A DNA stretch of 49,667 nucleotides from an uncultured bacterium. GTDB taxonomy: Bacteria; Patescibacteriota; Gracilibacteria; Absconditabacterales; Absconditicoccaceae. The notes beneath the pieces were generated by a model, which did no database searches, was not told the DNA's origin, and worked only from the letters and a program-made list of their open reading frames with translations. The number at the start of each line of letters is the position of its first letter. Position 1 is the stretch's first letter. The position numbers were made by a program, and so were the translations under genes. Below are positions 1,630 to 39,856 of the stretch, piece by piece. The stretch is from positions 1 through 49,667 of the forward strand of contig CAUTUR010000001.1 of the NCBI GenBank assembly GCA_963541585.1, in the 5' to 3' direction.

Positions 1630-2127
1630 CTATAAAAATAAACTCATTAATCCTCTCAAGATAGCATAAGAAGCGATAATCACGATGATTCAGATAATGG
1701 CGTTTTTCATTGCTGCTTTTGCATCACTTGGACTTCCGTATCAAAAAATTGTTGTGGCATACTGATATCCAGCATAAAGCATCATGATCCCTCAAATAAG
1801 GAGCCCTAGCTGTGATAAAAATTTCATAATATAGACCACATACTGAATCAAAGTATTTCGTCCCATAATTCAGGTTTGCATGGCTTTTGCAATATCTCAT
1901 TTTTTTTCATAGTCTTTTGCTATGGTAGTATACCTTTCAATTGCTGTTCCTGAAATAGAGGGGTTTCCGACAGTTCTTACATCATTTGCAGCAGCAGTTC
2001 TTCCTTCTTCAGAGGAAATTTCTGGGATAATGTGGAGATTATTTGGTGTAGCAGAAGCCTGAGATCCTCAAAATAAAAAACTCAACATTACAAGAGAAAG
2101 GACCACAATAATAATTCTGATTTTCAT
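1630..2127 (-). CDS. Small membrane protein, TrbC/VirB2-like (type IV secretion pilin-like), 165 aa
   Basis: ATG at 2125-2127, TAG at 1630-1632, and every codon in this gene checked for TAA/TAG; 6 in-frame TGA. Signal peptide MKIRIIIVVLSLVMLSFLFGGSQASA. Two C-terminal hydrophobic helices flank a short loop (LLIGGIMMLYAGYQYATTIFGYGSPSDAKAAMKNAIIGIIVIIASYAIL), the layout of T4SS pilins. The family call is by resemblance only. Confidence 0.5.
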
Positions 2128-2148: not shown

Positions 2149-3081
2149 TTAATTACATTGAGAGATAAGTTTTGGAATCATCCTCACAACTCCATGAAGA
2201 TTACTGATTGCACTTGTTAGATTTTCTAAAAGTTTTGTTGCTCTCGTATTGATAAGATAGTGATCTGCATATTGTTTCATTTCTTGCGACAAGAGTAAAT
2301 CAGATTTATGAATAATGAGATTTGATAGGAGATATACTTCCTTATCTATAGTTTGCTGAGTCATATTATCACAGGCTCTTTGTGCAAGAAGCATCTCTTC
2401 ACTCTGAAAATCAATAGGGAGGAGCGTCATAAGATAAATAGCACTTTGACAAAGGTTGCTATATCTGGTATTTAAGTTTCGCTCTCTATATTTTGAAAAA
2501 GGAAACCTAGTTTTTTCAATGTCTTCTATCGATTGTCTATATTCTTGGGGAGAAACTCAATTGTATGACGGAAGATGAAGAGAGGCTTGTCTCTCTCGAT
2601 TATCATGATATGTCCTTGATAGAGCAGGTGGTAAAGCTCACGCTCTTTGATGTCCTATTTGATTTGTTGTTTCCCTTCGCTCTTTAGCTTTTCCATCAAC
2701 AGGAATGTCATCATAGTTTCCATCTATATTTAATCTCCTCATCATCACATCAACTAAGTGATCAAAAAGAAAGGCTGATTCAGGGAAGTTGGTCCTATTT
2801 TTAATCAGGATACGGTCTTCTTCACAGGATTTTTTCATTATAGGATTATCATTGAGGAGATTTGAACTGCAACAGTGGCTTTTTAGGTTAATTAAAGCCC
2901 TATGAAGTCCTTCTTTTGTTAGGGGTTGTAAAGCGGGATTCCCCTTTGTTGTTGTATCAAAAAGCGTATTTTCAATCGCTTTAATTGAAGTTTCCGTAAA
3001 AAGCGCACAGTCATGGGCGGATACAAAGCTAAAGGTAATGCTTCATCAAACAAGAAATAAGAAGACAGATTTTTTTAGCAT
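2149..3081 (-). CDS. Secreted hypothetical protein, 310 aa, Cys-containing
   Basis: ATG at 3079-3081 and TAA at 2149-2151. Track ORFs 2149-2430 and 2638-2838 share this frame, and the gaps hold only TGA. N-terminus MLKKSVFLFLVGGSITFSFVSA looks like a signal peptide. Lies 67 nt downstream of the giant ORF. Confidence 0.7.
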
Positions 3082-3148: not shown

Positions 3149-6100
3149 TTATAAAGGTTTTACTTTAAATGTAATGGTAGCAAAGGATTCTTCAAAGGCA
3201 TTTTCTGAAAGAGAGTAGCTAACGGTTTTCTCTTTACTGTTAAATTGATAGCTTCATCGAAGTGGTTTGTTACTTCGAAGAGAACCATTCTTTGCAATAT
3301 AGAGTAGAGGTTCTTTATTCTTCAGGATCACTTCTCATCCATTGAAGCTACCGTAATGCTGTCCTTCTAAAGTATACAGTGTCCCTTGGGAAATCTCCTT
3401 GTTGATCAGAGCTTCTGATTGTAAGATGATTTCAAAGAGGATTTTTCAGTTTTGAATAACATTAATAACAGGATATCCTTTTGAGAAACTGACTTTTAAG
3501 TGTGTTGTTTTTTGGAAAGCAGGTTGTATTTTAATTTCTCCATTTTGTCCATTGACGGTAGCAATGAGCTTTTTGTTTTCTGTATAAAGTCCGATTAATT
3601 CTCCAAAATCATAATAAGCTCCTGTGATGGTAGTCTGATTGGTAGAAACAGGATAAGTCAGAATTTTCTTTCCATTTTGGGTAGCAGTCAAGCTTGAGTT
3701 TACACTACTTCTTTGTTTCTCAAAACTAACGTTTCCTTGATCAATATCTTTTTCTAATTCAGAAGTAATAAGCATTGGATTTTCTATACCTTCTTTCCAT
3801 CCAGAAACTTGCTGAATATGTTCGATGGTGATTTCAGGGATTTTAATACTGAGGCTTATATTTTCTACTTTTTCATTGCCTTCAGAATCTTTTGCTGAGA
3901 TCGTATAGTGTTTGGTTTGTTCTTTTGTGAAGAAGAGATCTTTTAGCCTAAGAGTTCCCTCGGAAGCATTGATCGCTTTTTTCATAATCTGTTTTTTGTT
4001 TTCTTGGATATAAGTTGTTGTTATTAAGGTATCATCAGTTCGTGTAATTTCTAGGTCATAATAGCTTCAGATATATCATTGCAGATCTAAACCTTCATCT
4101 TCTATTGCAGCTTTTCTTTTTCTAATAAGTTTTACTTTAGCGGTTGGTGGCTGATTATCTCATATAACTTGTCTTCCAGCAACGATTTGGTTCGATCGAG
4201 GAGCATTTTTTTGATATACGCGATTTTCATTTCTTAGGCTAGTGAGTTGGAGGTATTGCCATTTTCTTGGGGCTTCATGAAGACTAAATTGAAGTTTTTC
4301 TTCAGCAGGATTATAGTAAAATACTTCAGAAATCAGTTTTCAAATCTGATTTTTTACTTTAAAGGTAGATCTCTCAATTTGTAATTTTAAAGCGTTGATT
4401 TCTGTTCCCTTAGGGAGAAAGAGAAGATATTTGACTCATTCTTGATCATACTTTTCCAGCAGGCCATCTACCTTTTCTGAAATCTGCATCAGATATCCAG
4501 AAATCGCTTCATGATGATTATTCATCCAAGAAAAACTCAAACTATCAAAGCTTTGTCCCTCGAGTCTAAAGTTCTTCACTTCTGAATTCTGATCATAGAG
4601 CTTGATTTCATCACTATTCCCCCAAAGCCATCATCCTCAGAAACGTTCATATTTTTTCTCCTTATTTTTGAGCTGAGGAGTAATGACATAAAAATCTTTG
4701 AATTGTTGTCCTATTTTAGCTTCGACATCATTCGCATATTTTATATAGACATTGTGATCATCTCGAGTGATGAGTTCTGTTTTTTTATCATTATTGATAT
4801 CTTGTTGATAATACTTTGGAAATTTCTCATAATTGAGTTTTGAATGGACAACATTTACTAGATTATTCTCATGATTCTTGATAAGAACACCTTCGATATA
4901 ACTACTCATATCTGTAGTTGAGGTTTCATGGGTTGCTGGTTTTTTATTTCATATTTGAGTAAGAAGGGGTCTCTGTTCAGCATCTCCATTTTTAGTCAAA
5001 AGTGTTTGCTCTCCAGCATAGCTCTGTGTTTTTATACTATTCCATTGATTAAGTTTTGATTGAATTGATTGAAGATAGTTTTTTGAGTTTTTATAGGTTT
5101 TGTCTGACATATTTAACTCTGAAGCGCTATGAGTATTGAGAGCAAGCATATATCCATTGAGTCTTTTTGCTTCCGTAGAGATGAGTTCTTCAGTAGGATT
5201 TCTATTTATTATTGTTTTTTTAGCTTCAGTATTATCCTTCAGAAGATGAGTAGAAAAAGAAAGCTGAACTGGTTTATTTTTCGTTCATTTTTCTATGGTT
5301 TTTAAAAATTTTGTATAATCTGACTTGGCCAGTTGAGCTAGAGTACTAATCTCTTTTTGTTCATCTTTTAGGAGTCAAGAAACCTGATTTTTCATATTAA
5401 ATAATCCTGTTGTGTTTGCTGAAATTGTAGTATCTGTTCAAGCTAAAGATAAAAGTGGATCAATTTTCTTTTTTTCATAATCAGAAGAAAGAGCGTCTTG
5501 TAAAGAAGTCAGATTTCATTTTAATTTATCTTTATAGCCTACTTGAACATTAAGGTTAATAGGAGTATCTGTGGTAGTATTAAGTTTATCAGTTGTCTTA
5601 TCACTAAAATCATTTACGTTATTAGACAAAGATTCTGCTTGTGAGCTAAGATTGTAAGTACCTTGATTGATGCTATCAACCATACCCTTTAGGAGAGCGT
5701 AAAAAGCATCAAAGTTGTATTGGAGATTTACATAACTATCTACCTGAATATCTACTCATTGTAGAGGAGTTTGTTTAAAATAAGCAGTAAGATCCAAGTT
5801 GTCTACCCGAGGGACGTTATAAGTTCTTTGTGTCATTTGTTCAATTCTGGCTTTTACAGAACTTTCACCAACAAGTCCAATTCAAGATTTTATGATACAA
5901 TAAATCTTAGAAAGTTTTTTTGCAATACTTACCATACTAGTAATTTGATTTGGAAGTTCTGGAATTTTAGGAGCTGGAGGTAAAACAGGAAGCTGCATTT
6001 TTACCTGAGGAATAAAAGATGGAAGCTCAGGAAGTTCAGGTGGATTTGGTAAAAGTGGAATATCAGGAATATTGAAATCTATCTTAAAATTTACACCGAG

Positions 6101-9100
6101 TTGTGGTGGTTCTGGAAGATTTGGAAGTCTTGGTAATTCTACTGTCTCTGGAACAAAATTAAAACGAGGAAGAACAATATCCATTCCAAGATTGAGATGT
6201 GAGAGATCAATATAGAGACTTGGTATTTTTACACTAGGGATTGGAATAATCGGCAGATCTGGACAAAGGAAGCTTAATTTACAAGAATACTGATCGTAAG
6301 TATCATTCGTACATTTACCGCATTTTTTTCCTCGATCCACAAAAAGATCTACCATAACTTGATAGGTTTTTACAACGCCTAAAATAGTAATAATAGCATC
6401 TACATACTGAGTAAATCTATTCGCGTTTACTTCCATCCAATAGTTGATGTATCAGAAAAAATTAGAGAGTAAAGCTGAAATTTCTCATAAATACCTATCG
6501 GAAACATGCAGCCATTCGTAGATCTCGAGTGGGAACCTTTTATAAAGTTCCAAAACTTGAATATTTTGGTATATTTGTTCGCTTGTTTTATCAAACTTTG
6601 AAGCCATTTGAACAATCTGACTTTTTGCCTGTTCAATGAGTTTACATTCAGATTTTTTCTTTTCTTGAGTAGTTCCAGTTAGAGTAGTGAGTTCTTTTTT
6701 ACAGTTTCAAAGAGCAAGATCAATAATTGAATTCCATCCCTTTAAAGTTTCTTTGTTGCTTTCTTCCCAGGTTAGAAGGTAACTTTTGTAAGCTTCAATA
6801 TCTTCACTATAAATTCGTGGAATTTTGATATTGAGTGTCTGACTAGAAATATTAACAAGTTCTTTATCATTGAAAAAAGTCTGAAGTTTTTCAAAGGGAT
6901 TGTCTCAATTCGCAAGGTCAAGTGCTGTCAGATTCTCCTTTGAGTGAAGCTTTGTTAAGGTATTTTTTGCCAGCGTTTTGAGATTTTCTGATTTTTTAAA
7001 TTTAGAGGTAAGTTCGGAAACAGTAGTTTCTGTTTGTTTCGTTCATTCACTTGTTAGTTTTCAAAGTTCTTGAAAGTTAAAACTAGAAATCTGATTATTT
7101 AAATCGTCCATATCAGGGAGAATAACCTCTACACGGAATCTTAGGAGATTATTGATCCAATATTGCATTTGTCTATCAAATCGTCAAACAAGTTTTTTTT
7201 GTAGTCCTTGTTGCTTTCCTCAGAGAATCGCATTTTTAATATCCTTTACTCATTGAACCTTTACTCCATTGATTTCTAATCCATTTTGAGTAGCATCTAA
7301 CTGAGAAGTAATCGCATCGTAATCTATATTGATAGTTCAACCAAGATAGCTACCTTCAGCTAAACTATTTGGAATAGCATCATTCGTTAATGCTGAAGCA
7401 GTGATTTTAAATGGTGAATCACTTTGTTTGAGCTGACAGGTGTTCGTTTGACGATAATCTTCTGACCAAGGATGGTAGGTTGTACCTTCTTTATGAGAAG
7501 TAGTATCATTGGTAGTTCAGCTTTTCTTTTTTCCACAAGGCAAAGGCATTGAAGTTACAATACAATTTCCTCCAATATCTGAAAGAGGACTTGGCATGCT
7601 AATCCCTGCTGAATAAGGTCACATACAGATTGCTAATCATAATTGTGCTGTCAGTGTTGGAGCTGCATAAATCCTGATTTGAGAAGGATAAACTCCTCAT
7701 CAAGCCCAAAGGAAGCCATCTCCTGGTCATTTCAATCCCCAAGGAATAGGAATGCTTCAAACAGGAGTATACAAGGTTCCTGGAAAATGAAAAACAGGCA
7801 ATCCTTTTCCAAGAGTCCTTGTTAATGGCTCTAGTGGAATACATCCCATTAAATGATAGTTTCCAGGAGCGAGAAAGGCTTGATTGAAAGGAACTGGTAA
7901 TCCTTCACATGACTTAAGATTAGAAAAGGAAAAAGTGAATCCATTACACATTTTGTCTGCTGCATCTTGAATTGTATGTTCAATTTTTGTAAGTTCTTCA
8001 TCAAAAAGTTCTACCTTTATATTTCCAAGGTCAACATTTTCTCCGTTTTTGAGATCTGATCGCGCTCAAGAAAGAATATCTTTTACACTAAGAGTTTCCT
8101 GAACTTCATTGATTCCAGGCATATTATTTAGAGTATCGATACTCTTGGTTTCTTTTACTTTATTTTCTGCTTCTTGAGTTGCTTGTTTTTTATCATGATC
8201 AATCTCATTCATAACATTATCACTTAACTTTTGGAGATTAACAACCTTTTCTTCGTAAGTTCTTTTTTTCTTGAAGATTTCGTTCTTATTTATGAGCAAA
8301 GATTGTTGTTTATTACATCAGTCTTTGGCTGCTTGAACAATAATGTCAGGTAAGGTATCAACTCCTCCTAGTCACGATATGTTATAGTCTCTTGGATTTA
8401 TATCTTCAATTCTTATCTTAAAAAGTGGATCATCCATATGATAGGTGAGCGTATAGGTATACACAATTTGGTTATTAGCAGAGAACTGCATATTAGTTAA
8501 ATAATAGGCATAGACGTCAGTTTTTGGATTGATATCAGCTTTTCCTTCTTGAAATTGAATATCTTTTGGAGCTTGTGTTGTCTCATTTTGTTCGATAAAT
8601 CGAGGTCCTTGAATTTTATCAAAAAAAGCTGAACCAGATCCGAAAGTTCCATTTTTATTGATGATAAGAACTTCAACTTTTACTTTATCTCATTCTTCTA
8701 GGTTTCATCAGTTGATATCAGTATATCTTTTTGAAATATCTCTTACTTTGTCACTTAAAATTTTATCTGGAAGAGGAGTTTCTAGCTTATTAATAGGTAC
8801 GAAGGCCCAATTTTCCTGATCTGCAAATCATTCTAAATTTTCAAAAGGGTTTCTAACATATTTAGTAAAGATTCAAACTCCGCCCTGAGCAGTATCAACA
8901 ATATCAAAACTTTGTCCTGCATGAACAATTTCATTTTTACTGCTAGGATCTATACGTCCCTTTTCTTCAGCTCCATCTTTTACACAACTAGAAACAGAAG
9001 GAAGCCAACACATCCCATCTTCGTATGAAAGTTTTCCTTTGATTCTTTGATCATCAGTTTGACGATGTATTTCTCTATATTCTCTTGATCAGCAGAGCGG

Positions 9101-12100
9101 TCAGCTAGGATTTGGAACAGGACAAGATTTGCAACTATTATATCTTCGATATTTTTTACAAAATTGTTCTCAATAGCTGTTTCTTGAACACGAGTAATCT
9201 AGTGCTTGACAGGGAGCAATCAAATTTTCATTTTCTATTTTCCCCAAGAGAAGAGGATCGGTTTCAATTCATTTTTCTCTATTATTTTTTTGATTGAGTG
9301 CTTCTTGGAGCTCATGTTCAGTTGGGTAATTTAATCCATCTCGACGAATTAAACTTTCATCTCTGATCGCTTCTCAATTTAATTGAAGTCAGAATTTTTT
9401 GACAATTTTAGTTGAGGATTCTTGTCTAGAAGATCGATCCTTATCACAAGTATAGATATTTTTACTCAAATAAGAATGATTTTTTAAATTTCCCTTACCA
9501 TAGAAAATTTTGAGATATCATTTTTTGTCTAAAGTAATAATATCTATTTTTCCATCTGCATCCATATCTTTCACAAAAAGTTGATGAACCTTTGAGAGAT
9601 TCTCTGGAGTAGTTGTGATTTCTCAGAGTTTTGTATTAGTATTCAAACAGGCAATTTTCCCATCGACATCAAATACCCCATCTTGATTCGTATAAATTCT
9701 GATCTGATTTTTTGTATTATAAACAATAATATCTTCAAAGTTATTCCCGTCAATATCCCCAATAAAAACTTCCTTAATTGGTTCTGCACTGATCATAAGC
9801 GTTCCTATCGTTTTGAATTGTTTATCTTGATACTGTTTTTGAAGTCTAATCTCTCAATCTTTATAAACAATCAGAAGATCTCTTAATCCATCATTGTTAT
9901 AATCGATATCTATAGTTTTAAAGATTGGTTTCTCGCTATCACTATAGACGACCTTTCCTAGTCCTTGATTATAATCAGCTTTTTCTAGATTTTTATTTTC
10001 ATCAATTCTTTTGAGTGCAGGATCTCAAATATTAATTAAAAATTCTGATCCAAAAGCTAGCGTAGCTTCACCTACACTCTGTCCTCCTGCAAAAGAAGTG
10101 ATATTTTTAAAATTAGCTCTAAATCAGATTGCTTTTTCCATTTCATCACTATTCTGAATAGAGTCATAGCCTTGATAGTCTGTTTTTAAACGGTCAAGTG
10201 TAGAGAATACTGCTTTTACAGTACTTGTTGTTGAGCCATTTGAAAAAACTGATCAGAATTCATATTCTTTATTTTCGAGATCCAAAGTAGCATTACTAAA
10301 ATCAATCCCTGCAAAAATAGCTTTCCCTAAAATTTGTCCTTTCCCAATAATATTCCAAATAGGTTTTCCTACTATTTCTTCATCGGTCCATTGAAAAGTG
10401 ATACCATCATCAAGACTCGCAATGTTTATCCCTTCGTGATTTTTAAAGCTTCCATCGGTATAGGAAAAATTCTGATCAATATCATAGATATAGAGTGATT
10501 TTTCAGTTTCTTGTAGTAGCTTTTTTGGATTTAATAATTGTGTAGGAAAAATCTTTCTTTTGGTCCATAAATCATTTACAGTAAGCGTTCAGATTCCTCC
10601 TATTTGTAAAAGTAATTTTCAATCCTTTTTTCGCGCAAGAAGAGTATGTTGATCTATATTTTCAATTGTTCAATTATTTCAAAGGATTAAGCTTGTTCTT
10701 TTAATTTTATTCAAATCAACAAGCTGAGTTGTAACTGCAAGCGTTTTCTTTGATTTTGAAATAATAGTTTCAGAAATTTTCCTATTATCAGAATGATAGC
10801 CTCGTTGATTTCACCAGTCACTACCAAAAAGATTCAGATACATGACATTTATTCCATCTGCAATACTTGAGCTTAAAAAGAACTTTTTAGTAATTAGGTT
10901 CGTAGATCATTGAATTTTCTTTCCATTACTCTCTGCTTCTGCATAGATCTGAGTACGTCAACCTTGCTGATTTGATTTCAGTTGAAGTTTCTGCTCTCCA
11001 TTTACGATATTCATTGTTCCATAAGGAGAAACACTAATTGGACCATTTTTTCAGAGAAATACCTTTTGAGATCAGTTTATTTTATTTCACCAAGCATCAG
11101 TTAAGTTAATAACTGCAGTTGAGCTAGAGTTAGGATCTAATTTTTCTTTTGTGAGATTAAAATTGATTTTTTCTAAAGCTCATGGAGCAATATCTAGCGA
11201 TAACACTTGTTCTTTGAGACCAGGAATCACGAGAGAGATAAGATCTTTTCATGATACATATCATGGGACAAGATAAAGCCTAGCTTTCCCATCTTTCATG
11301 AGAAGTGAGTTTACAGGGGAGAGTGTCAGTTTTTTCTTTCATTTACCATCAAAGGATTCTTGTAAACTCATAACTTTTGCAAGATTATTTTTTGATCCTA
11401 GAATAATATTAGTTGTGATAGGAATAATCGCATTTGTAGAATCTCTCAAAACAAGATCAAGTGCGAGAGCCCTACGGATATTGAGTAGCATGTTGCCTTT
11501 TGAATCACTAGAAAAATATGGAAGATCAGTAATTTGATAACTCAAAGATTGACTAGGAGATCAATTTTGTTCTAAGCTAAGTTTTCAAGCGATAAGTTTT
11601 GCCGTATTGTTAGATAAGAGCTCTCACTTTTTATTTTTAACAGAAAACTTAACAATTCAGTTAGAATTTAAATCTCACCTATATAAAAGTTTTAAATTCT
11701 GAAAATCATTTACCTCCTGGTATTTTCTTTCTTGTCCTCAAACGACAAGTTTTCATTTATCTACCTCTATGATATACGATTCTAATGTCCTCTGAATCTC
11801 ATTTTTGTAAAGATCAAGCGCTTTTAGGGAGATAAGCGTATAGGCTCCTGCAAGAATTTTTTTATCTTGAGGAAGTCAGATTTCAAAGCTTTTAACAGGC
11901 CCAGGAACAGCAGAAAGTGAAACAGACTTCGTTCCACATGCTCAATTTCATCAGCAAAGTTCTAGTGTGGCTACAATAGTTCAAATACTGTTCTCCGCCA
12001 AGAGAAAATCAATACCAAATCCATTTTTGAAAGGATTTTTTGTTACCATTACTTTGGAAGTACAAGTATTTTGTCAATTAACAAGTAGGCAGTTATCTCC

Positions 12101-24264: not shown

Positions 24265-25578
24265 ATGGCAGACAGTGTTAGTGTTACAAAAAGAACCTGA
24301 TATGGTTCGCGTGTTGGTAGTAGTTTTAAAAAAATCTTCTCAGGGATTCTCCTTGTGCTCCTATCAATTGCGTTACTTGCTTGGAATGAGAACAATTTTG
24401 TTGAGCAAAAAGCTGCGCTCAATGAAGGAAGCAAGGTTGTTGAGGAAACAAGTTCTGAAACTGTTAATCCAGCTCTAGATCAGAAATTGGTTCATCTTGA
24501 TGGAGTGACCTCTTCTCCTGATGAGCAGCTTCAGGATTCAATTTTTTGAGTAAAAACAGAGGATCTTAAACTGGCAAGGAATGTAGAAATGTATCAGTGG
24601 ACAGAATCTTCATCAGAAGAATGTCATGATAATGTCTGAGGAAGTGAAGATTGTACAACAACCTATGATTACAAAAAAAAATGGAAAAATGAAGTGATAG
24701 ACTCAAGTAGATTCTATGAAACGGCAGGACATAGCAATCCTACAGCTATGGAGTTTGAATCTGAACTGCAAGAAAAATCTCCAATTCAGATCGGTGCGTT
24801 TACTTTAGGAGAGGCTTTTGTTGATCAGCTTGATGATTATCAAACGCTTCCTTTACAAGATCAAAAGCTGACTTTCCCATGACAAGAATCCGTTTCACAA
24901 GTAAATGTTCCAGAACAAGAAATAACTACTTGATCCGGAGAGGTACTAGTTTCTTCATGAACCGAAGCATCGCTAAGCGGAGAAGATACTTCAATGGAAG
25001 CTAATGATCAAACATCTCAAAAAGTTGAAAGATTTCACCTTATGGGAAATACTATTTATGTTGGGGAAGACCCAGCTAATCCAAAAGTTGGTGATCTCAA
25101 GATTACTTTTTCCACAGTAAAGGCTTGAATGACAAGTATTATAGGAAAACAGAATGGAAACGAACTTTCTCCTTACAAGACCTCAAACAACAGAAGTATT
25201 GCTCTTTTGGAAAAAGGGAAAGTAAGTGCTGAAGAGATGTTTGCTAATGCTCATGCTGCAAATAGAATGATGACCTGGATACTGAGATTAGTTGGACTTT
25301 TCTTGATGTATCTTGGATTCTCAATGATGTTTGATTTTATTGTTACTTTAGCTAAAGTTCTTCCATTCTTGGCAAGTATTATTGGCGTTGGAACCTCTTT
25401 TGTAGCTTTTGGATTAACAATCATTTTGGGTCTTGGAACGATCGCTATTGCACGAATTGTAGTCAGACCAATCGTAGGAATTCCACTTCTTATTCTGGCA
25501 GTAGGTGGTGGTGTTGGTTTCTTTATGTGGAAGAAAAAAGATAAGAAAGAAGATGTAGCCCCTACAAATAATTCTTAA
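24265..25578 (+). CDS. TMEM43/DUF1625-family membrane protein, 437 aa
   Basis: YGSRVGSSFKKIFSGILLVLLSIALLAWNE, KLVHLDG, LQDSIFGV and LARNVEMYQW follow the DUF1625 pattern. The C-terminus has multiple TM helices. Track ORFs 24355, 24694 and 25129 share the frame of the ATG at 24265. Confidence 0.7.
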
Positions 25579-28794: not shown

Positions 28795-31700
28795 TTACTT
28801 TTTGATAACATAGCCAATATCTTTGAGTTCATAACTATTATTTCTATAGACATCATAGATGACTTCTGCTACTGTTCCTCTCACTTCATCTACTAGGTGA
28901 GATTTTGGAGTGATTGAACTAATATACAGTTTATAGTTTCTCGCTCGATCACCTTTTACTTCTTCTAAGAGTTCATTTCTTACCAATCTTGTCATAATCG
29001 CGGAAAGTTCTCCTACGGTAATCAATTCTTTTGGTCTAAAGGTCGTCTTCTCTTTCTTCCCATCAGCATTCTTGTCTCCATTGAAGATCAGATATTCATA
29101 GGACTTTTTGATATACGGTAATAGCTCTGGATTTGCTTTCTCGAGATCAGTAAAGTGATCATTATAATTTCTACTTGCTTTTCTACAGAGAACATTTGTT
29201 GCAAATTCTGTCATGAATCTTGCAGCTTCTTCTCTGGTTAAGCTTCTCTCTGGAGCAAAGTCTTTCGTTCCTTGCCATTTAGTCAGTGAGTAACTGTAAA
29301 GCATCTGATGAGCTATTCTTAGAAGTTCACTCATTTTATTTCCTTGATCTATAGTCTCTTTATCAAGAGGATTGAAACATGTTGTTTTGATAGTGGGATT
29401 GAACACTTCTGTTTTTACTTGCTCGGTTTTTACTGGAGTTGAGGTATCTTTTTTTTCACAAGATCCATTTAAGCAAGAAGAATCTGGTTTCCTAGTTGAT
29501 CCTCCACCTCCTCCACTATAACCTCAAGAACTTGGTTGAGTAACAGTAATAGTAAAGATTTGACTTGTTTCGTTTCAAGCAGCATCTTTAACCTTTACTG
29601 TAACTGGATAGCTACCTATTGCAACTGCTAAAGTTCAGCTAATAGTTAATGTCGTTGCATCAAAACTTAATCATGTAGGTAAAGGAGAAACATCCCAACT
29701 AACAATTCAAACATTATCGGTTGCTGTAAGAATAATTGGAGTAATCGTCGAGTTAATATTATAAGTAACATCTGCAATAGTTCAAAGTTTTGGTGGGATT
29801 TCATCAATATCATTTAGAGTAATTGTATATGTTCCCGTAGCTGAAAGTCAGAATTTATCCTTTACCTCAACTACTAATGTATAACCACTCACTGTTTCAT
29901 AGTCTAATTTTCCATTAACTTTAAGTTTATTAGTATCAATAGTAAATACATTTCCTGTATTTCCTGAGATGATGGTATAGCTTAAAGTGTCTCCGTTATT
30001 TGAATCTACTCCATTAAGAGTAAAAACTTCCGTTCCAATTGGAGCATTTTCATCAAGCGTTGTAGAATCATTTCAGAGGGTTGGAACAACATTGATATTA
30101 ATAGGATCTGTAAGGTATCCAGTATGAGCATTTCCTACTTTATCTTTTGCAACAATACAGAGATATTTCCCATTCTGACTTGCATCAGTAAACTCAAAAT
30201 TTAAATTAAAAGATTCTGAAGATTGAGGATTTAAAGCTAAAATCATCTCATAATTCTGACAATTTTCGTCCTCTCAAACTCACCAAGTTATCGCTGAATC
30301 ATCATATTTTGGATCATTTTTTTCATTCTCTTTCCAAAGACCAGCTCCTCACTCATCCTTAACACTAAAGCTAACTGTCCACTTTTTTCACTGTTCTGAA
30401 TCTGTTTTTCTTATATTTGAAATGGTAGGTTTTATTTGATCTATAGTATATCCAGATTTCGTTAGGGAAGTAGTATTTCCTGCTTTATCTGTCGCCTTAA
30501 CAGTAATTTTTCAATCAACAATTGGTTTTTTCGCAGTGAATCTACATTGTACCCAAGTATTAGATTTTTGACTACAAGCAAAATCATCAAAATCTAAATT
30601 TGAATTATCACGATCAATCTCTACTGCTCACTGATCTATTCCATGATCATCTACTACATCTATTAGAAAAGGAATACTATCTTTTGTTAGGGAAGACAAA
30701 GGGGATAACGTAATATCAGGCTTTGAAGTATCATAAACTACTGCAAGACTATTCACTCATTCTGCTCCATTGTCATCTTTTGCAGAAATTTTTAGAATTC
30801 AAGTTTTATTAATTCATTTAAAGGTACAAACTACTTTATTTGTTGGACTATTATCAAAATCAACAGGATCTCCATATCCCAAATCCTGATTATTACAAAT
30901 GATTTTTTCTACTCCCGTATCTGAAGGATTTTCAATTTTAATATATTTGATTTTAAACGAACTTGGAGAGTAGATTGTAAATTTTCACTCTATAGTATGA
31001 TTACTAAGTGTAATGTTACTTGGATCAAACTCAATAATTGGCGGAAACTTAATTTCATTTTCTGAAACATTACCCACTTTATCAAAACATTTTATCTTAA
31101 CAGTATGTACCAATTCTCCTGCATTAAAACTAAGATTTTTAGAATCTCATACAACAAACGGAGAGATGGTTTGTGATATTCATCCAGCATCAGTATAAGA
31201 CAATTCACATTTATCAATACCTGCAGCACCAAAGTCTTCAGCACTTTTCAACGTCACACGTGGACTATGAATTCATGGTGTGGTATCAATCTCAACTTGT
31301 GCAGGTTTTGGAGCTTGAGTATCTATGAGATAACCTATTGCTTGTATAGATGCTGTAATCTCTCTTCCTCATTCAACTGTTTTCAAAAATTTAATTCAGA
31401 TTTTCCCATTTGGTCTTTCATGAGTAGAAGAGATTTTAATAGTACAATGGACTACTTTATCATCCGAAGGATCTAGAGTACAATTAAAATCTGAATATTC
31501 AACGGTAGTCTTCGCAGGATCTATAGACAGTACTCAATTATTTAGATCAGCGTTTGTTAGGGGATATAAATTCTTGAAAGTAAAAGTCGTATCCGTAATT
31601 TCTCTATTACTTTGCAGAGTTGGAGTATTGACAGAAAATTGAGCTTTACAGTCAAATTTGTCTTGTCATCGAATATTCAAGCCTTCAGAGATCAATCTAT

Positions 31701-33462
31701 CTCTCAAATCAGCAAAGGTACAATACGTAGACTGAACTCCAATATGTCTAAGCTTTGTAAAGTCCAAAATCCCTGCTTGATGTTTAGCATCTATAGCCTC
31801 CAAAAGCTTTTTATAATTTTCACTCGGATATCGATAGATACCTTTTACTTTTAATGCATCATCTTTAATAACGATACCTCAAAATTGACCATGATTAATT
31901 TGAGAGAAATCCCAATTTGAAATATCGTGAGTAAAACTTGAAGCTCTATTAAACATAAGCCACATACTAGTAACCTTGCTTGTATTCCAACTAGAAATAT
32001 CAGCATTAAATTTTATAGCATCTGAAAACACTCAACCCATATTAGTAACCTTACTTGTATCCCAATTCCCAATTGGTTGATCAAAGTTCTTGGCTCCTCA
32101 AAACATTCCTCACATATCAGTTACTTTAGAAGTAATCCAGCTTCCTATCGGTTGATTAAAGTTTGCAGCATTGTTAAACATTGCTTTCATGGTAGTCACA
32201 TTACTGGTATCCCAATTTCCAATTGGTTGATCAAATTTTGGCGCTCATTGAAACATAGCCTGCATGGTAGTTACGTTACTTGTATTCCAATTTCCTATTG
32301 GCTGATCAAATTTAGTAGCTCAATGAAACATCATAAGCATATTAGTCACATTACTTGTATTCCAATTTCCTATCGGTTGATTAAAGTTTATTGCCTGACG
32401 AAACATTGAATTCATCGTAGTAACCTTACTCGTATCCCAGTTTCCTATTGGTTGATTAAAATCCCTTGCAACATGAAACATAAAGGACATATCTGTTACA
32501 TTACTCGTATTCCAGTTCCCTATTGGTTGATTAAAAACTGTCGCTCAATGAAAAGTAGACTGCATATTGGTCACATTACTCGTATTCCAGTTCCCTATTG
32601 GTTGATTGAATTTATGAGCATAGTAAAACATTGAATTCATCGTAGTAACCTTACTTGTATCCCAATTCCCTATGGGTTGATTGAAATTCTTCGCACTCGA
32701 AAACATCGCTGCCATATTGGTTACTTTACTCGTATTCCAGTTGGAAAGATCTCCATCAAATTTTTCGGCTCAAGCAAACATTCCATACATATTTTCAACC
32801 TTTGAGACATCCCAATTAGTAAGATTCTGGTTAAAATTTTTCGCATTTCCAAACATCTGTCTTGTATCTTTTACCTTACTCGTATTCCGAGTTCCTATTG
32901 GCTGATTAAAGTTTATGGCTCAATAAAACATCGCCCCCATATTAGTTACCTTACTTGTATTCCAATGGGAAATATCAGCATTAAAACTGGTCGCTGTATG
33001 AAACGTTCACCCCATATTGGTTACATTACTTACATCCCAGTTTGAGATATCAGAGTTAAATTTCACAGCTCCTTGAAACATACTTGCCATTGAAAAAACA
33101 TTGCTCGTATATTGATTTGAAGGAAAAATAATCTGACTTTTAAAACTATGAAATAATCCATTTGCATTATCAGGGAACCAGACACCTTCCTTAAACTCCA
33201 CTTTATTAATTTCTTCAGTTTTAAGATTAAGTGTATTTACCATAGAATTCCATTTGGTCATTATAATTTGCCCTGTTCCAGAAGATGCTGGCTGAATTAT
33301 CAAAGTTTGATTCGTTTTATCCCAAACTCCATCCACATTCGTTCAAAGAGTAAAAGTCTGACTTGGCTCATTTACCTGAGCAAAGCTAAGCAAACTTCGC
33401 CCCCCCCCTAGGAAAACGAATCCTAGCAATGCGACTGCTAGCATCTTCCAGAAATTTTTCAT
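28795..33462 (-). CDS. Large surface adhesin-like protein, 1555 aa: signal peptide, about 15 DUF285/BspA-type 26-residue repeats, Ig-like modules, one cadherin-type repeat, SLH-like C-terminal domain
   Basis: Frame checked codon by codon from 29401 to 33462 with no TAA/TAG. Repeats of the form [23 protein letters not shown]. Cadherin-like [46 protein letters not shown]...LNDIDE. C-terminal [14 protein letters not shown] is SLH-like. ATG at 33460-33462. Confidence 0.8.
31900..33120 (-). repeat. About 15 tandem 78-bp coding repeats (DUF285 / surface protein 26-residue repeat)
   Basis: Strings such as ccaattggttgatcaaa and gtaaccttacttgtat recur every 78 bp. The plus-strand ORFs here (32077-32409, 32452-32634, 32681-32905) are their antisense shadows. 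Confidence 0.8.
33400..33408 (-). repeat. Homopolymeric G9 tract (C9 on the plus strand) inside the adhesin signal-peptide coding region
   Basis: Plus strand reads ttcg ccccccccc tagg. It encodes Gly-Gly-Gly at residues 19-21 of [29 protein letters not shown]. Confidence 0.9.
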
Positions 33463-33556: not shown

Positions 33557-35170
33557 TTACCATTTTAAAAATTTCATCTTTTCAGCTTGATTAGGAAGAA
33601 AAATATCAAGGTACTTATCAATAATAGCATAAACAAAATCAGAAAGATCAACAATACTTAGTTCTTGAGCAGAGATTCAAGGATATTTTCTTGCAAAAAC
33701 TTCTTTAACCTTATGTTGATTCTCATCAATAGAAAATCCTCTTAGGATCAGATTATTCTCTTTTATTATAGGTAAAAAGAGTTGTTTCGCTTTGCGATTC
33801 CAAAGAGAAGTTTTTGCTAATTGTCCTGCCTGATGATAAGAGAGGGTTTTTATTTTTTTGAGCTTTCATTCTTCTTCTTCAAAAAAAGAAAAGCTGATGT
33901 TCTCATCATTTTGATCTATTTCGAAGAAAGAGAAAGGAGTTTTATTGAGAAGAAATTTTTCTCATCACTCAAGACTAAGTTCAGGACTAGCAGGGGAGCT
34001 TCCTTTTCCTAGGTCTCTTGTTGCAAGGAGAGCTCCAGTTTCATGGGTAAAGAAAAGCATATCGCCAATCAATTCTGCTCCATCAAAAGTCAGATTTCCA
34101 CTTAATAATTCTTTACTTCCTACTTCAGAAAATTGAGCATCAAAATTAGTTACTTGATAACGATTAAATTTCCCACTAGATAAGGTCGTAATCATACTGC
34201 TTTTTGAGCCTCTTGGGAGAATACCATTATTGAGCAAAAATCCACTAAGAAGCGAAGATTTTTGATAATTGAGTTTCGGTTCAAGAGAAAATCTCTGAAT
34301 AAGCGTCTGATTTTCACTATTATGCTGACTGGTATAGAGAAAATCTTGAGAAAATACCAAATCTTCAAAATTTCAGAAGAGCGTATAATGCTCCCTTTCC
34401 TGGGTAGGAATATTCAGATCCACAACAAGAAAACTCCAAGCTTTAGGCAATTTATCATCAAAAAAATATTTTAATCCGCGACATACTTTTGATTTAGATC
34501 AAGTAAGCGGTAAGCCATAGGATAAACCTTGCTCTACCAGAGGGAAAAGCTCCGTTTCTGATACTTTATGTTTTACGACATTCTCAAGGGTTGTTTTAGG
34601 AATGTCATTAACTGAAATTAGATAAAATTTTTCGTTTTGTAAGTGAGTTTTAGCAATCTTCCCAGTTTGTTTGAAAAGGTGAACAGGAGCGAGTTTAGCA
34701 TTCGAAATTTCATAAATCAGAAGTAAACTCTCATCCTTATTATCTACCTTTTGTGAAGCACTAATCAACAAGAGCTTTTCTCAAAAAAATTGTACAGAAA
34801 CATCGTAAAAAGATTTTGGAAGTCTGATTTTTGCGATTTTTTTTACCGCATTAAAATTGATAAGAGAAGTACCGGACTCTTTAGGTCATTGAACAATCGT
34901 AAGAATCTGATTTTTTTTATCATAAAGAGGAATAAAAGCAGAGCTTGCACTATGAGCTTCTCACCTATTAAAAAATGGAGGATGAGTTTTTTTTACTTGA
35001 TAGAATTCTTGTTCAAGAGCTTCCTGTTTAAGAAGTTGCTTAATCTGTTTATTAAAATCCGCACAAGAACTGATTTCTTGTCGATCATGATTTTTTCAAG
35101 AGCTTGCAAAAGTAGCAAGTGGACTTATCCCAATAAGCATGGTCAGCAAGAAGAGGATTCCTTTATTCAT
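33557..35170 (-). CDS. Secreted hypothetical protein, 537 aa
   Basis: ATG at 35168-35170 with signal peptide MNKGILFLLTMLIGISPLATFASS; TAA at 33557-33559. Track ORFs 33965-34360 and 34499-34771 share this frame, and all gaps were checked. Lies directly upstream of the adhesin gene on the same strand. Confidence 0.7.
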
Positions 35171-35303
35171 CATCTCTTAGAAAAGATAAACGATACTGAT
35201 AGTAAGGTTCCATTTCTTTTTTTCAAGAAAGATTGCATTTTTCTTATCAAAAGGATTTTAACATAAAATTTTCTAAAAAGAGTCATAATTTTTTTTCAAT
35301 ATC

Positions 35304-35367: not shown

Positions 35368-38268
35368 ATGCCACAAACACCATCATCAAAATACCTCTAC
35401 TTTCAGATCAAACCATTCAAGGACAACGAACTTTGAGTGGGGCATTGGGAAAAACTGATAAAAAACCTCGTTTCTCTTAAATCAAAAAAAATCACTTTTC
35501 TCATCTGCGGAAATCGTGATGATATTCAGCTGTTTGTGAGGTTGCCAAAAGATTTTCAAGCCTATTTTCAAAATACTTTTTATACGACGTTTACCACTTC
35601 TGACCTAGTAAAAAGTGATCGTATTTGCCTGGCAGGGGAGAGGGTGTATCTTGGATTGATCAAAGAATCCTTTTTCTCATGAAAGAAAGCTTCTGGAGTA
35701 CTAAAAACCAAGGAGGAATTCACCAAAGACGGTTCTTATCTTGATCCGATGACCGATATTTTCGCGGTTTTCCAAAATGTAGATAGAGATTCACAGCTCA
35801 AGATTGCATTTGAATACACTTTCAAGCTTGAGGAGGATGAATTGACCAAATTATTCAGCTTTTTTGGGAAAGTGTTTAGTTATCTTTGGCGAGGAGGTGC
35901 AAAAAAGAAAGAGGAAAATTCGGAAACTCCAGCTCTCGAGCAAGATTTATTGATGAGTATCTGGTACAGCATTCAGACCAAAGATGCCTATATGAAAGAG
36001 AGTATAAATGGACTTCTTAATTCAGTTTTTGCGCCTTTTTTGGCAAATGGCTCTTTCGTAAAAAAAGAAAAAGCTGAATGGATGCCGGTGAGTTTTGCTC
36101 AGGCGATCAATGTTTTCCATCTTCCTACCAAAATCAACTTCATTAAGGGACTGGATTATACCGTTTATAGAAAATTACCGTATCCAACTACGCTTCCTAC
36201 ACCGGATAATACCCCATCAAAGGAGCTTACCATACTTGGGGATACCGATTACAGAGGAGATAAGATCAGATTTTGAATCCGTGAAGAAGATAAATTTAGG
36301 CATATGTATATCGTAGGTAAGACCTGAACTGGAAAATCTACCTTCATCAACAATATGATCATCTCGGATATGAGGGCTGGAAATGGGCTTTGTCTGCTGG
36401 ATCCACACGGAGAACTCGTAGATGATTTGCTGGAATATATCCCTTCAAACCGCATCAATGATGTGATTCTTTTTGATGTTGGAGATGCGGAATATCCGAT
36501 CGGATTCAACCTTTTGCAAGCCGATAATGAAGATGAAAAAAACAGAATCGCTTCTGGGGTCGTTTCCACATTTCAGAAACTTTTTGACAATTCCCGAGGT
36601 CCAAGACTAGAATATATTTTGAGAAATGTCGTGCTGTCAGTAATTGACTATCCAAATGCAACTTTGATGCATATTTTGAGAGTCTTGACGGATAAAGAAT
36701 TTCGTGAAGAGGTGATTTCTCATATCAAAGATTCAGTATTATTAAAATTTTGGAATAACGAGTTTAATAAATGGCAGGATAAACAGAGAGAAGAAGCCGT
36801 AGGGCCGATTACCAATAAAGTCGGACAGTTCCTTTCTTCTCGTCTTGTGAGGAATATCTTTGGACAACCAAGAACGAAACTCAGCATCAGAAAGGCAATG
36901 GACGAGGGGAAAATCATTCTCGTAAACCTTTCAAAAGGAAAAATTGGTGAAGATAATGCGAATATGATTGGATCGCTCTTGGTAACCAAAATCCAGATTG
37001 ATGCGATGGGAAGAGCCGATATGGCGAAACATTTGAGAAAGCCGTTTTACCTTTATATTGATGAGTTTCAGAACTTTGCAACCAAGTCCTTCGCGACGAT
37101 TCTTTCAGAGGCGAGAAAGTATAAGCTCTCTCTGATTGTAGCCAACCAATATACCTCTCAGCTTGATGAAACGATCAAAGATGCGATTTTTGGAAATGTA
37201 GGAACGATCTTCTCTTTTACGCTTGGATATGATGATGCTTCCGTGATGACTTCACAGTTTAAGGAGATGGTCAGCACAAATGATCTGATTTCTTTGCCAA
37301 AGTTTACCGCTTATACGAGGCTGATGGTAGATGGAATCTCCTCAGATCCGTTTAGTATGAAGACTTTGCCGCCTTTTACTTCTGAAGGGGATATAGAACA
37401 TATTGAAAAAATCAGAAACCAATCTCGTCAGAGATACGCGATGGAGAGAGGTCAGCTTGAAACCTTGATGAATGCCCGAAGCAAAAAATCCTTTTCCGTG
37501 CAAGAAAAGATCGCAGAACAGGCAAGATATGAAGGACTTGGACTCTCTGCAAAAGAAGCAAAAAATCTGCAAGATTTCCAGGTTCAGCAAAATAGCAAAC
37601 GGTTTTCAGAAGTAAGGATCGGTGATCGCTCAGCTGATGCGATGATCGTAGATACCGAACAAGGAAATCACAAAATGATCCGATACGCCCAGCCACAAGG
37701 ACTGGAGAAAGTGGCTACTTTACAGGTTCAGAAAGGGAAAATCGTAAAACTTGATGAAAAGACTCAGCTTTCTTTTTTTGTGAGTATTTGGCAGCATACT
37801 ACCCTAACTTGTAGCAACAAAAAACCGCTTACCATCTGGATTGGAACGAAAAAAGAAGTAGAACAGCAACTTCAAGAAATCTACCAAAAAGCTGGTCTTG
37901 ATCCTGAAAGGACAGACTTCCTTAAATTCATCCCTAATGTTGAACTTTTAGAGGCTCAGCAAAAAAAAACTCCTTCTCAAAAAATTCAAAAAGCTGATCT
38001 TCCTCAAAGCCCGACTGACCAGAGCGGATTTACTGTCAATGACATTCAGCTTGGGAAGGAATATCTCGGCTATGTGAAGCTGATTTACAACTATGGAATG
38101 TTTATCACAGTTAAAGGAGTAGAAGGGCTACTTCACAAAAAGCAAATCGTCGTTCCTGAAGGTGTAGATTGGAAAAAGTACTACAATATCGGCGACAAAA
38201 TCAAAGTCAAAGCACATGATTTCAAAGATGTTGATGGAGAGAAAAGAGTGGTCTGGACTCAGATGTAA
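35368..38268 (+). CDS. TraD/VirD4/TraG-like (type IV coupling protein-like, FtsK/HerA-class) P-loop ATPase with a C-terminal S1 OB-fold domain, 966 aa
   Basis: Track ORFs 35437, 35749 and 36355 share the frame of the ATG at 35368. Walker A IVGKTGTGKST with the middle Gly = TGA at 36325-36327. LLDPHGELVDDLL, Walker B LYIDEFQNF, and ARKYKLSLIVANQY as in coupling proteins. The last ~70 aa (GKEYLGYVKLIYNYGMFITVKGVEGLLHKKQ...GDKIKVKAHDF, about 38053-38262) fit an S1 domain. No N-terminal TM helices seen. Confidence 0.75.
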
Positions 38269-38392: not shown

Positions 38393-39856
38393 TTAAGATC
38401 CAAATACGAACTTATCTTCTATAGGCTTCATTGCTTGTCTATAAATTTCATCTACCTCTGGATAATCTCTAATAAAACTCATACTAACTTTAGCTTTTCG
38501 GGCTTTTACAAGACAGTTCTGAAATCTTTTAGTATACTTAGATACATCAATTCAATTTTCAACCATAGCTTGAAGATGTGATACATATCACTCAAGAAAT
38601 TCTCTGTTTTGAGGATATTTTTCTAGAGTTTTTAACTTTTCTTCCAGCTTTTTTAACTCTTCTTCACTATTTACTAAATAATAATTTTTATAAAATTCAC
38701 GAAGAAACTTTTCATATTTACTCACATCAATTCAATCCTCTTTTGATTCTTCAATATAGGTTTTAAATAAGCCCATTTTGAAATGATAGCTAGGATTTTC
38801 TTGAAAATATTTTAGGATATCTTCAAGAGTAGCTAAATAATGCTTTTTTGAAATTTCAGGAAAAAGTTTTTGATATTGATCCACATTGATTCAATTCTCT
38901 TGTGCTTTTTTAATATAGGTTTTACACGATTCAAATGCTTCCTTATTTAGAAGATCATTTTGAAGAATATTAAAATTATTTTTAAGCTTTGTTAAGTAAT
39001 ATTCTGCTGCCACATTATAGAAAATTTTTTCATATTTATCTACATTATTTCAAAATTTCTTTGCATCGTTTATAGCTTCTTTAAATAAAGAAATAGATCA
39101 GAAAAAAGTGAATGTTTGAAGATTTTTTAATCTTTTTTTAACTTCTATTAAAGAGCGTTTTTTGTTAATCTCATAGAAAATTTTTTCACATTCACCTACA
39201 TCAATTCAAAGTTCCTTTGCTCTTTTAATACGGATTGTGGCTAACATAAATGCTCCACTATCTAAAACATCTTTTTGAAGACGACTTAATTTATTTTCAA
39301 TATCTGTTATATAATACTTTTCACACATTTCATAGAAAATCTTTTCATATTGACTTACATCGGCTCAATCTTCCTTTGCTTTAAACAAATACCTTTGAAA
39401 TGAAAAAAATAAGTTTATATCTTGAGGATTTTTTAAAAGATTATTTAAAGTTTCTTCTATCATTACCAAATAATATTTTCCACGAGCTTCATCGAAATTT
39501 TTTCGATATCTAGTTATAATTATATCAGCTCATTTTTTTTCTGCATTTAAAAGAGTATCTTTAAGCCTCGCCAATAATCAAACATCCCCAGGCTGTCTTG
39601 AAAGATCATTTAAGTATCTTTCAATTTTCTTTTCTTCCGCTGAAAGAGGATACTTTTCAGGATTTTTTCTTTTATCTAAAAGTGCAACTTCTCCTTTTTT
39701 CACCGTTGCTATATTCCCTTGATACTTTCCATTTCCCTGGAAAACAATTTCAAGCTGATTTTGAGTCTCATTAATAACTTTTGCCTTTCTTCCTCCAGAA
39801 ATTACAATTTTACCAAGATAATTCATGATTTCTTGATTCTTATTGTGAGTATTCAT
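38393..39856 (-). CDS. Hypothetical repeat protein, 487 aa: about 90-aa N-terminal domain plus seven 52-60 aa repeats
   Basis: Track ORF 39578-39856 continues through TGA; the frame was checked from 38393 to 39580 with no TAA/TAG. Each repeat carries a motif such as KEDGIDVSKYEKFL or QENGINVDQYQKLF, whose Gly is TGA in all seven copies (38552, 38732, 38891, 39050, 39206, 39365, 39530). Confidence 0.75.
38480..39560 (-). repeat. Seven tandem coding repeats, 156-180 bp period
   Basis: acatcaattcaa-like strings recur at the positions listed for the repeat protein. Confidence 0.7.

Follow-up and report, generated by a model that had tools for sequence, protein, structure and literature searches.

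The 49,667-nucleotide stretch of DNA analysed here (contig CAUTUR010000001.1 of an uncultured Absconditicoccaceae bacterium, hereafter the window) carries at 35368..38268 a gene for a protein of 966 amino acids (aa) that joins a predicted ATPase of the VirD4/TrwB type, the fold of type IV coupling proteins (T4CPs), to a genuine C-terminal S1 domain of the oligonucleotide/oligosaccharide-binding (OB) fold, and that has no transmembrane (TM) anchor. On sequence comparison, the protein is an anchorless, S1-bearing branch of a very large family in Patescibacteria, referred to here as the DUF8128-T4CP family, which descends from the coupling proteins of type IV secretion systems (T4SSs). Orphan T4CPs of this phylum were already known and have been counted; the anchorless, S1-fused architecture within that family is new. 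The role favoured for the protein, with a probability of roughly 0.45, is that of a soluble, cytoplasmic motor derived from a T4CP, which would act independently of a T4SS on a single-stranded substrate captured by the S1 domain.

Domain architecture and predicted fold

Assignment of the central part of the protein to the coupling proteins relies on motifs, profiles and a structure model. The motifs quoted in an earlier note, made from the letters alone, are all present (GKTGTGKST, LLDPHGE, YIDEFQNF, ARKYKLSLIVANQY and GYVKLIYNYGMFITVKGVEGLLHKKQ), and both the Walker A motif GKTGTGKST and the extended Walker B motif FYLYIDEFQNF are invariant across 28 homologues. The coupling-protein-like core that the note had proposed is borne out by Pfam matches that all exceed their cut-offs, namely DUF87 (4.8e-8), TraG-D_C (5.3e-6) and TrwB_AAD_bind (1.2e-5; 24.9 bits versus a cut-off of 20.5). 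The VirD4/TraG model PF02534 (T4SS-DNA_transf) does not match the window protein and matches relatives in the wider family down to 2.5e-13; compared directly with TrwB, the sequence gives a marginal match (E = 2e-4) confined to the P-loop region.

The fold was modelled as a monomer with AlphaFold2 (AF2) on P0006, a correctly translated proxy that is 78 % identical to the window protein. A first model, built on 27 close sequences of low diversity, left the ATPase core unusable, with predicted local distance difference test (pLDDT) values of 25-50, while the final model, for which 107 sequences of the wider family were added to reach an alignment of 134, has a pLDDT of 88.3 and a predicted template-modelling score (pTM) of 0.71. 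Its best full-domain Foldseek match is TrwB, with a template-modelling score (TM-score) of 0.63-0.67 and a root-mean-square deviation of ~5.5 Å over ~455 columns, corresponding to nearly the whole of TrwB-deltaN70. Cag-beta (TM-score 0.54-0.57) and DotL (0.55) come next, and HerA (0.36-0.52) and VirB4 (0.26-0.32) are poorer matches. As modelled, the ATPase has the VirD4/TrwB fold, that is a nucleotide-binding domain (NBD) with an inserted all-alpha domain, and its Walker A and Walker B motifs are intact.

Like TrwB, VirD4 and TraD, the protein has a P-loop NBD with an all-alpha insertion, both Walker motifs, a 'RK...Q..QL' sequence after Walker B and an extension at the C-terminus, where the substrate receptor of T4CPs sits. 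It differs from them by a 270-aa alpha/beta domain that takes the place of the N-terminal TM domain, by the addition of a middle domain and of the S1 domain, and by the status of its gene, a highly conserved chromosomal one that is linked neither to virB4 nor to a relaxase or a mobile element. With the HerA/FtsK translocases and the DNA-import ATPases CedB and CedD it shares the P-loop superfamily, as reflected in the DUF87 match, but the all-alpha insertion is missing from those families. In addition, it lacks the HAS-barrel of HerA, its own N-terminal domain being alpha/beta, and no NurA, Sir2 or DUF4297 partner gene lies nearby; the gamma domain and the TM segments of FtsK are likewise absent. 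An identity as CedD, a protein composed of a TM part and a VirB4-like N-terminal domain (bioRxiv 10.1101/2024.09.27.615246), was set aside: the match to NF053655 (4e-10) reaches 38.9 bits for a cut-off of 600 and covers the P-loop region only (residues 290-362), and the all-alpha insertion is present.

The S1/OB fold that the earlier note had seen at the C-terminus is a genuine one. The Pfam model S1 (PF00575) scores 20.5 bits, slightly below its 22-bit cut-off, and close homologues carry PF00575 in the precomputed table. NCBIfam rpsA models match the domain down to 2.7e-9, the C-terminal 86 aa alone retrieve ribosomal protein S1 from the PDB at 6e-14, with the best alignment on its mRNA-binding domain 3, and Foldseek gives the modelled domain a TM-score of up to 0.77 (S1 protein 2k52). 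A near-invariant motif, GYVKLxYNYGMFxTVKGVEGLLHK, characterizes the domain; residues Y909, F912, H923, D943 and K944 are invariant and align with the 'YGAFV...GLLH' signature of domain 3 of bS1, and they may correspond to the binding residues of the S1 domain of PNPase. Direct binding of single-stranded nucleic acid, which the earlier note had deduced from the fusion, can reasonably be inferred from a domain of this kind.

Between the ATPase and the S1 domain lie a middle domain and a disordered linker (Table 1). For the former, no match was found among PDB sequences and Pfam returned noise only. Mean pairwise identity across the clade is 80-82 % for the NBD and the all-alpha domain, 75 % for the S1 domain, 47 % for the N-terminal domain, 45 % for the middle domain and 17 % for the linker. 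Because identity stands at 75 % in the S1 domain versus 17 % in the linker that precedes it, the pattern fits a strongly constrained functional domain carried on a flexible tether.

Concerning the first ~320 aa, the earlier note had reported neither hydrophobic helices nor a recognizable family. The former observation stands, and with it the lack of a TM anchor: over the whole protein the highest mean Kyte-Doolittle hydropathy of any 19-residue segment is 1.15, relatives such as P0137 reaching 2-3 at their N-terminus. The latter has to be revised, as the region is predicted to fold into a pair of alpha/beta units, the first of which is probably homologous to DUF8128. AF2 pLDDT values in this domain are mostly 83-96, with one loop at ~51-75. 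The N-terminus is called here a divergent DUF8128-type domain because hhalign ties the first alpha/beta unit of the clade to the N-termini of proteins bearing PF26449 (probability 94.5 %, E = 8e-8, over only 81 columns). In the wider-family proteins the matched region sits just past the anchor; the close homologues are not listed under PF26449 in the precomputed annotation. Several orthologues (P0058, P0071, P0074, P0082, P0095, P0102 and others) possess an N-terminal extension of 20-50 aa starting with 'MLKHAEKLGKMLA...', without counterpart in the window protein, which might form an amphipathic, membrane-associating helix.

Table 1. Features of the T4CP-S1 gene and its product, with positions in the window
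Feature	Position (nt)	Strand	Description
Whole gene	35368..38268	+	966 codons and stop; code 25 (TGA = Gly)
N-terminal domain	35368..36177	+	aa 1-270; two ferredoxin-like alpha/beta units in the model, no TM helix; divergent DUF8128-like
In-frame TGA no. 1	35434..35436	+	codon 23
In-frame TGA no. 2	35680..35682	+	codon 105
Pre-NBD strands and first half of NBD	36178..36528	+	aa 271-387; Walker A GKTGTGKST at nt 36316-36342
In-frame TGA no. 3	36274..36276	+	codon 303; column is Gly in standard-code relatives
In-frame TGA no. 4	36325..36327	+	codon 320; middle Gly of Walker A (GKT-TGA-TGKST)
All-alpha domain inserted in NBD	36529..36903	+	aa ~388-512; T4CP hallmark; eight helices in AF2 model
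Second half of NBD	36904..37497	+	aa 513-710; Walker B FYLYIDEFQNF at nt 37045-37077; ARKYKLSLIVANQYTSQL motif; TraG-D_C match
Middle domain	37498..37965	+	aa ~711-866; helical bundle and beta-rich unit in the model; lineage-specific; AF2 pLDDT mostly 86-97
Variable, disordered linker	37966..38028	+	aa ~867-887; pLDDT < 50; length varies
S1 (OB-fold) domain	38029..38265	+	aa 888-966; five strands in model; nucleic-acid-binding fold

The DUF8128-T4CP family and the spread of the S1 fusion

The size of the family became apparent when 1.84 billion cluster representatives were searched with a profile: 23,090 clusters match at E ≤ 1e-3, and 7,363 still do so at E ≤ 1e-30. Separate hidden Markov models (HMMs) for four regions of the protein were scanned on the best 150 representatives. 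The N-terminal domain was detected in 41 of them, the S1 domain in 20 and the middle domain in 8; the remaining representatives have only the ATPase core in common with the window protein, behind an N-terminal region of their own of 330-400 aa. A strongly hydrophobic segment, mostly at the extreme N-terminus, is found in 40 of the 150, and the nearest S1-bearing clusters (P0122-P0136) have none. When the homology search was started from P0137, which is both anchored and S1-bearing, the wider family proved to be uniformly PF26449 (DUF8128), with members from Patescibacteria named at source 'type IV secretory system conjugative DNA transfer family protein' or 'DUF87 domain-containing protein'. 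These proteins resemble that of the window by the same ATPase core (31-39 % overall identity, 500-675 bits), by a probably homologous first N-terminal unit and by the stand-alone position of their genes among housekeeping genes, and a few of them (P0137, P0275, P0276 and P0156) also end in an S1 domain. They differ from it in that many have a hydrophobic N-terminal anchor together with the longer N-terminal region, and in that S1 is missing from most of them and the middle domain from nearly all.

The clearest relatives outside Patescibacteria are encoded by Bacillus phages (phrog_5156 HMM, E = 4e-70). The proteins of phage G (gp156), JL/CP-51 ('MsbA-like') and 0305phi8-36 (ORF201) share the N-terminal domain and the ATPase over 800-890 Foldseek columns (E = 2e-45 to 2e-33) but are phage-encoded, only 21-27 % identical in sequence and devoid of the S1 and middle domains. 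In phage G (L086, NC_023719.1 89194-93336), gp156 comes directly after the VirB4-like gp155, a two-ATPase module in a jumbo phage.

The S1 fusion itself was surveyed among proteins and genomes, as the earlier note had suggested. A protein search gave 4,677 matches, of which the best ~120 clusters are mostly full-length and 57-91 % identical, with names that assign them to SR1, Absconditabacterales, Gracilibacteria or Peribacteria. In a scan restricted to one genome per species, 130 genomes encode a relative; in the best 80 of the 130, on which full length was checked, the match reaches residue ~966 wherever the contig permits. The informatively named genomes among these best 80 all belong to SR1/Absconditabacteria, Gracilibacteria or 'Peribacteria'.

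Published work on these proteins concerns mainly their number and their relation to T4SSs. In 2,918 Patescibacteria genomes, 5,713 homologues of VirD4-type T4CPs have been counted, only 148 of them near virB4, while VirB4 was found in 18 of the 20 classes surveyed and relaxases are rare (Quinonero-Coronel et al. 2025, PMC12102498). The same study provides the sole genetic datum on orphan T4CPs of the phylum, namely that in S. epibionticum a T4CP homologue is dispensable and the T4SS essential, and states that exaptation of the T4CP homologues 'cannot be ruled out'. The S1 fusion and the loss of the anchor are undescribed both there and in a 2025 review (PMC12857230), the papers on Vampirococcus and on groundwater Gracilibacteria do not mention the gene, and a literature search for DUF8128/PF26449, or for S1 together with coupling proteins, returned nothing relevant.

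Genetic code, reading frame and genomic setting

The reading frame that the earlier note had delimited is one gene, provided that it is read with genetic code 25. It extends on the + strand from the ATG at 35368 to the stop codon at 38266-38268, and its N-terminus MPQTPSSKY agrees with the starts of homologues, which use the same Met. Table 11 breaks the frame into pieces of 81, 175 and 637 aa; straight translation meets four in-frame TGA codons (Table 1), and the frame is unbroken only with TGA as a sense codon. Two of the four (nos. 3 and 4) fall on invariant Gly columns in the alignment of 28 homologues, which includes standard-code 'Peribacteria' proteins, and code 25 also restores other long open reading frames (ORFs) of the window, such as those of 4364 aa (111 TGA) and 1555 aa (36 TGA). 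The entire window (1-49667) reads TGA as Gly, which marks it as part of a genome of the Gracilibacteria/SR1 type. A tRNA-Gly(UCA) was sought as direct proof of the code, and no tRNA gene was found anywhere in the window.

The 637-aa ORF of table 11 already covers the ATPase through S1, and the junction between them is therefore independent of recoding. Since this ORF spans the junction, and in view of the ~120 clusters and of the full-length matches in the best 80 of 130 genomes, an assembly or fusion artefact, raised in the earlier note as a separate C-terminal gene, was rejected. In public databases the near-identical entries P0039-P0046 (99 % identical) are fragments of 637 aa without Walker A, and other entries are code-4 translations with Trp at Gly sites, for example 'GKTWTWKST' in P0001; such truncated fragments and mistranslations, which make up most public entries, conceal the domain architecture. 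In GC content the gene resembles ftsH and other conserved host genes. A promoter and terminator scan gave results at chance level only, and no tandem repeats were found.

Its neighbours in the window are a divergent gene for a beta-propeller protein (33557..35173) and a convergent one for a repeat protein (38393..39856), with ftsH further downstream. The repeat protein (38393-39856, - strand) has 487 aa with about seven repeats of ~55 aa ending in 'G(I/A)DVSKYEK.F' and no Pfam match. The 49.7-kb window contains no second family member and no VirB4-like ORF, and neither virB4 nor a relaxase was found in the window or within 6-10 kb of the gene in 84 related loci. Housekeeping genes, different ones in each case, surround the gene in the complete genome of SR1 RAAC1, in a metagenome-assembled genome of Gracilibacteria and on a contig of 'Peribacteria'. 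Clustering of the flanking ORFs of the 84 loci revealed no universal neighbour and no conserved operon partner, the commonest neighbours occurring in 22-31 loci and on the opposite strand. Anchored relatives also stand alone, one by ruvX and rplI, another by a sigma-factor gene, a DUF4012 gene, a murA-like gene and mreB.

Common neighbours at the related loci (L004-L083, e.g. L020 2224-3384, L029 424-1074 and L032 805-1377) are PilC (T2SSF, 7e-46) and two small membrane proteins, all divergent; pseudopilin genes with the N-terminal methylation motif are nearby in 5-9 of the 84 loci each, and a 251-aa protein without assigned family is the immediate upstream neighbour in 31. The PilC/pseudopilin cluster is missing from the window, and its synteny is at most a weak hint at a pilus/ComEC route for single-stranded DNA (ssDNA).

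The earlier note had associated the ATPase with a pilin-like gene at 1630-2127 and seen in the two a minimal device for uptake or transfer of DNA or RNA. That gene (1630..2127, - strand) encodes a small protein with two TM segments that resembles the VirB2-like T4SS pilin family PF18895 below threshold (22.5 bits versus a cut-off of 26.6); it lies 33 kb from the T4CP-S1 gene and is not a conserved neighbour, and the association is not supported. Nor is the device, the T4CP-S1 gene being alone in the window and in the 84 related loci, where no virB4, virB6, relaxase or competence gene shares an operon with it.

Other regions of the window may be mentioned briefly. Next to the pilin-like gene lies one for a Cys-rich secreted protein of 310 aa without Pfam match (2149-3081, - strand), followed by the 4364-aa giant protein (3149-16243, - strand), in which the sole Pfam match is an FG-GAP-like repeat. 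An apparent defence or mobile island, as judged from the translations, occupies 16512-23151 (- strand); it encodes an 854-aa helicase resembling those of type III restriction, a 634-aa DNA methyltransferase with 'IDPPF', a 320-aa upstream protein and a small pair that is HTH/antitoxin-like. The gene at 24265-25578 (+ strand) codes for a bacterial protein strongly homologous to eukaryotic TMEM43 (PF07787, E = 1e-78). The 1555-aa secreted protein at 28795-33462 (- strand), with ~20 tandem repeats containing '...F..A..FNQPIG' followed by Ig-like regions, is probably a surface protein for host adhesion.

Proposed role and alternative explanations

How such a protein might work can be sketched from its relatives and its architecture. 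By analogy with TrwB, FtsK and HerA, it would assemble into a ring of six subunits and, at the expense of ATP, drive nucleic acid through the central pore, and six flexibly tethered S1 domains may capture a single-stranded substrate and pass it to the motor. The S1 domains would replace the C-terminal substrate-receptor tails of classical coupling proteins; because of this replacement, the substrate could be engaged directly, with no need of a relaxase or an adaptor. Most likely, the motor would work alone in the cytoplasm, co-opted for a core nucleic-acid task. The lack of an anchor and of T4SS linkage is the reason why a cytoplasmic, T4SS-independent role is favoured over coupling to a T4SS, and the Bacillus phages, which have no envelope-spanning T4SS and encode the same combination of N-terminal domain and ATPase, are counted for the same view. 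Rho, in which an OB-fold that binds single-stranded nucleic acid is joined to a hexameric ATP-driven motor, offers a functional analogy only: the window protein, too, has an OB-fold and an ATPase that would form a ring, but the ATPase of Rho is RecA/F1-like and not FtsK/HerA-like, and its OB-fold is N-terminal, whereas that of the window protein is C-terminal and tethered.

As to the substrate, the motor family argues for DNA and the S1 domain for RNA; a rough split gives about 50 % to ssDNA, about 35 % to RNA and about 15 % to neither. Candidate ssDNA substrates are DNA taken up via a competence/pilus (ComEC) route, which would be attractive in nucleotide-scavenging bacteria, or repair intermediates.

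Several considerations weigh against a soluble, T4SS-independent motor. That members of the family form rings, bind DNA or RNA and hydrolyse ATP is extrapolated from relatives, and the N-terminal and middle domains have no assigned role. S1 domains typically bind RNA, whereas this motor family is known for DNA. Classical T4CPs without a TM domain of their own are reported to dock on a membrane partner, so that loss of the anchor leaves room for T4SS coupling. Moreover, a partner T4SS may exist, given that VirB4 is present in 18 of 20 classes (PMC12102498) and that the window contains a weakly matching VirB2-like pilin gene. A more far-reaching version of the proposal, namely that a T4CP-derived ring ATPase has settled outside the secretion machine as a core cytoplasmic translocase of single-stranded nucleic acid, being either a motor for imported host DNA or the first RNA-directed member of the FtsK/HerA/T4CP group, is tentative and leans towards the unlikely.

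Alternatively, the protein could be a true coupling protein of a Patescibacteria T4SS, docked through a partner on a VirB4/VirB6-type channel, with S1 recruiting ssDNA or RNA for relaxase-free export or import. This explanation, in essence that of the earlier note, is considered unlikely. The T4CP fold with its all-alpha domain agrees with it, as does the C-terminal extension, which in classical T4CPs is the substrate receptor, a role reflected in the Pfam name of PF12696. Many nearer relatives retain the N-terminal membrane anchor, the homologue of phage G adjoins a VirB4-like gene, and the weak VirB2-like pilin gene lies within the window. On the other hand, the window protein has no TM anchor, no T4SS gene occurs within 10 kb in the window or the 84 related loci, and the ATPase core is ~80 % identical across deep lineages. 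Coupling proteins of mobile elements are seldom as conserved as this. The survey data cut both ways: relaxases are missing from most T4SS clusters of Patescibacteria and VirB4 has a wide distribution in the phylum, but only 148 of the 5,713 homologues are near virB4 and a homologue is dispensable where the T4SS is essential (PMC12102498).

More doubtful is an RNA-directed motor, that is a Rho-like or helicase-like hexamer whose S1 domains would act on transcripts or rRNA precursors in remodelling, decay or termination. S1 is overwhelmingly an RNA-binding module, and the best match of the present one is the mRNA-binding domain 3 of ribosomal protein S1; the housekeeping-type neighbours, the conservation and the parallel of OB-fold plus ring ATPase with Rho are in keeping with such a role. 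To our knowledge, however, every characterized member of the FtsK/HerA/T4CP superfamily acts on DNA. The phage relatives are from dsDNA phages, and RNA-processing genes are not conserved neighbours in the 84 loci.

That the protein is an ATPase for defence against phages, of the HerA or MADS (mad8) type, is very improbable. The PADLOC model mad8 matches at 6.5e-18, on the ATPase core only, several HerA models match down to 7e-9, and a type III restriction-modification-like pair is present elsewhere in the window. Nevertheless, the fold is nearer to TrwB than to HerA, and neither in the window nor at related loci does the gene adjoin mad1-7, Sir2, NurA, DUF4297 or any other effector. Defence genes are typically patchy and variable, while none of the related genomes found lacks this gene, which is highly conserved in them. 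Membership of MADS was set aside, as no eight-gene mad1-mad8 operon was found around the gene and the flanking genes code for the beta-propeller and repeat proteins. Finally, it is scarcely credible that the gene is left over from a prophage or another mobile element and has no host function. The strong score for phrog_5156 (4e-70) and the similarity to proteins of phages G, JL/CP-51 and 0305phi8-36 would speak for it, but these proteins share only 21-27 % identity with that of the window, the surrounding genes have housekeeping functions and include neither an integrase nor a structural gene of phages, and the gene is full-length across the clade with host-like GC content.

Patescibacteria possess about two orphan coupling-protein homologues per genome. 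The version of Gracilibacteria and SR1 is the most informative member of the family because it has lost the anchor and gained a conserved S1 domain. That domain names a candidate substrate, ssDNA or RNA, and turns the question of what the orphan T4CPs do into one that is testable with a single purified protein. If the motor handles RNA, the known range of the DNA-translocase superfamily would be broadened. If it handles imported DNA, it bears on how epibiotic and predatory bacteria feed on host nucleic acids, and, should the far-reaching version of the soluble-motor proposal be true, it would be the hitherto missing motor that pulls in or processes host DNA in the predatory, nucleotide-auxotrophic Gracilibacteria/Absconditabacteria.

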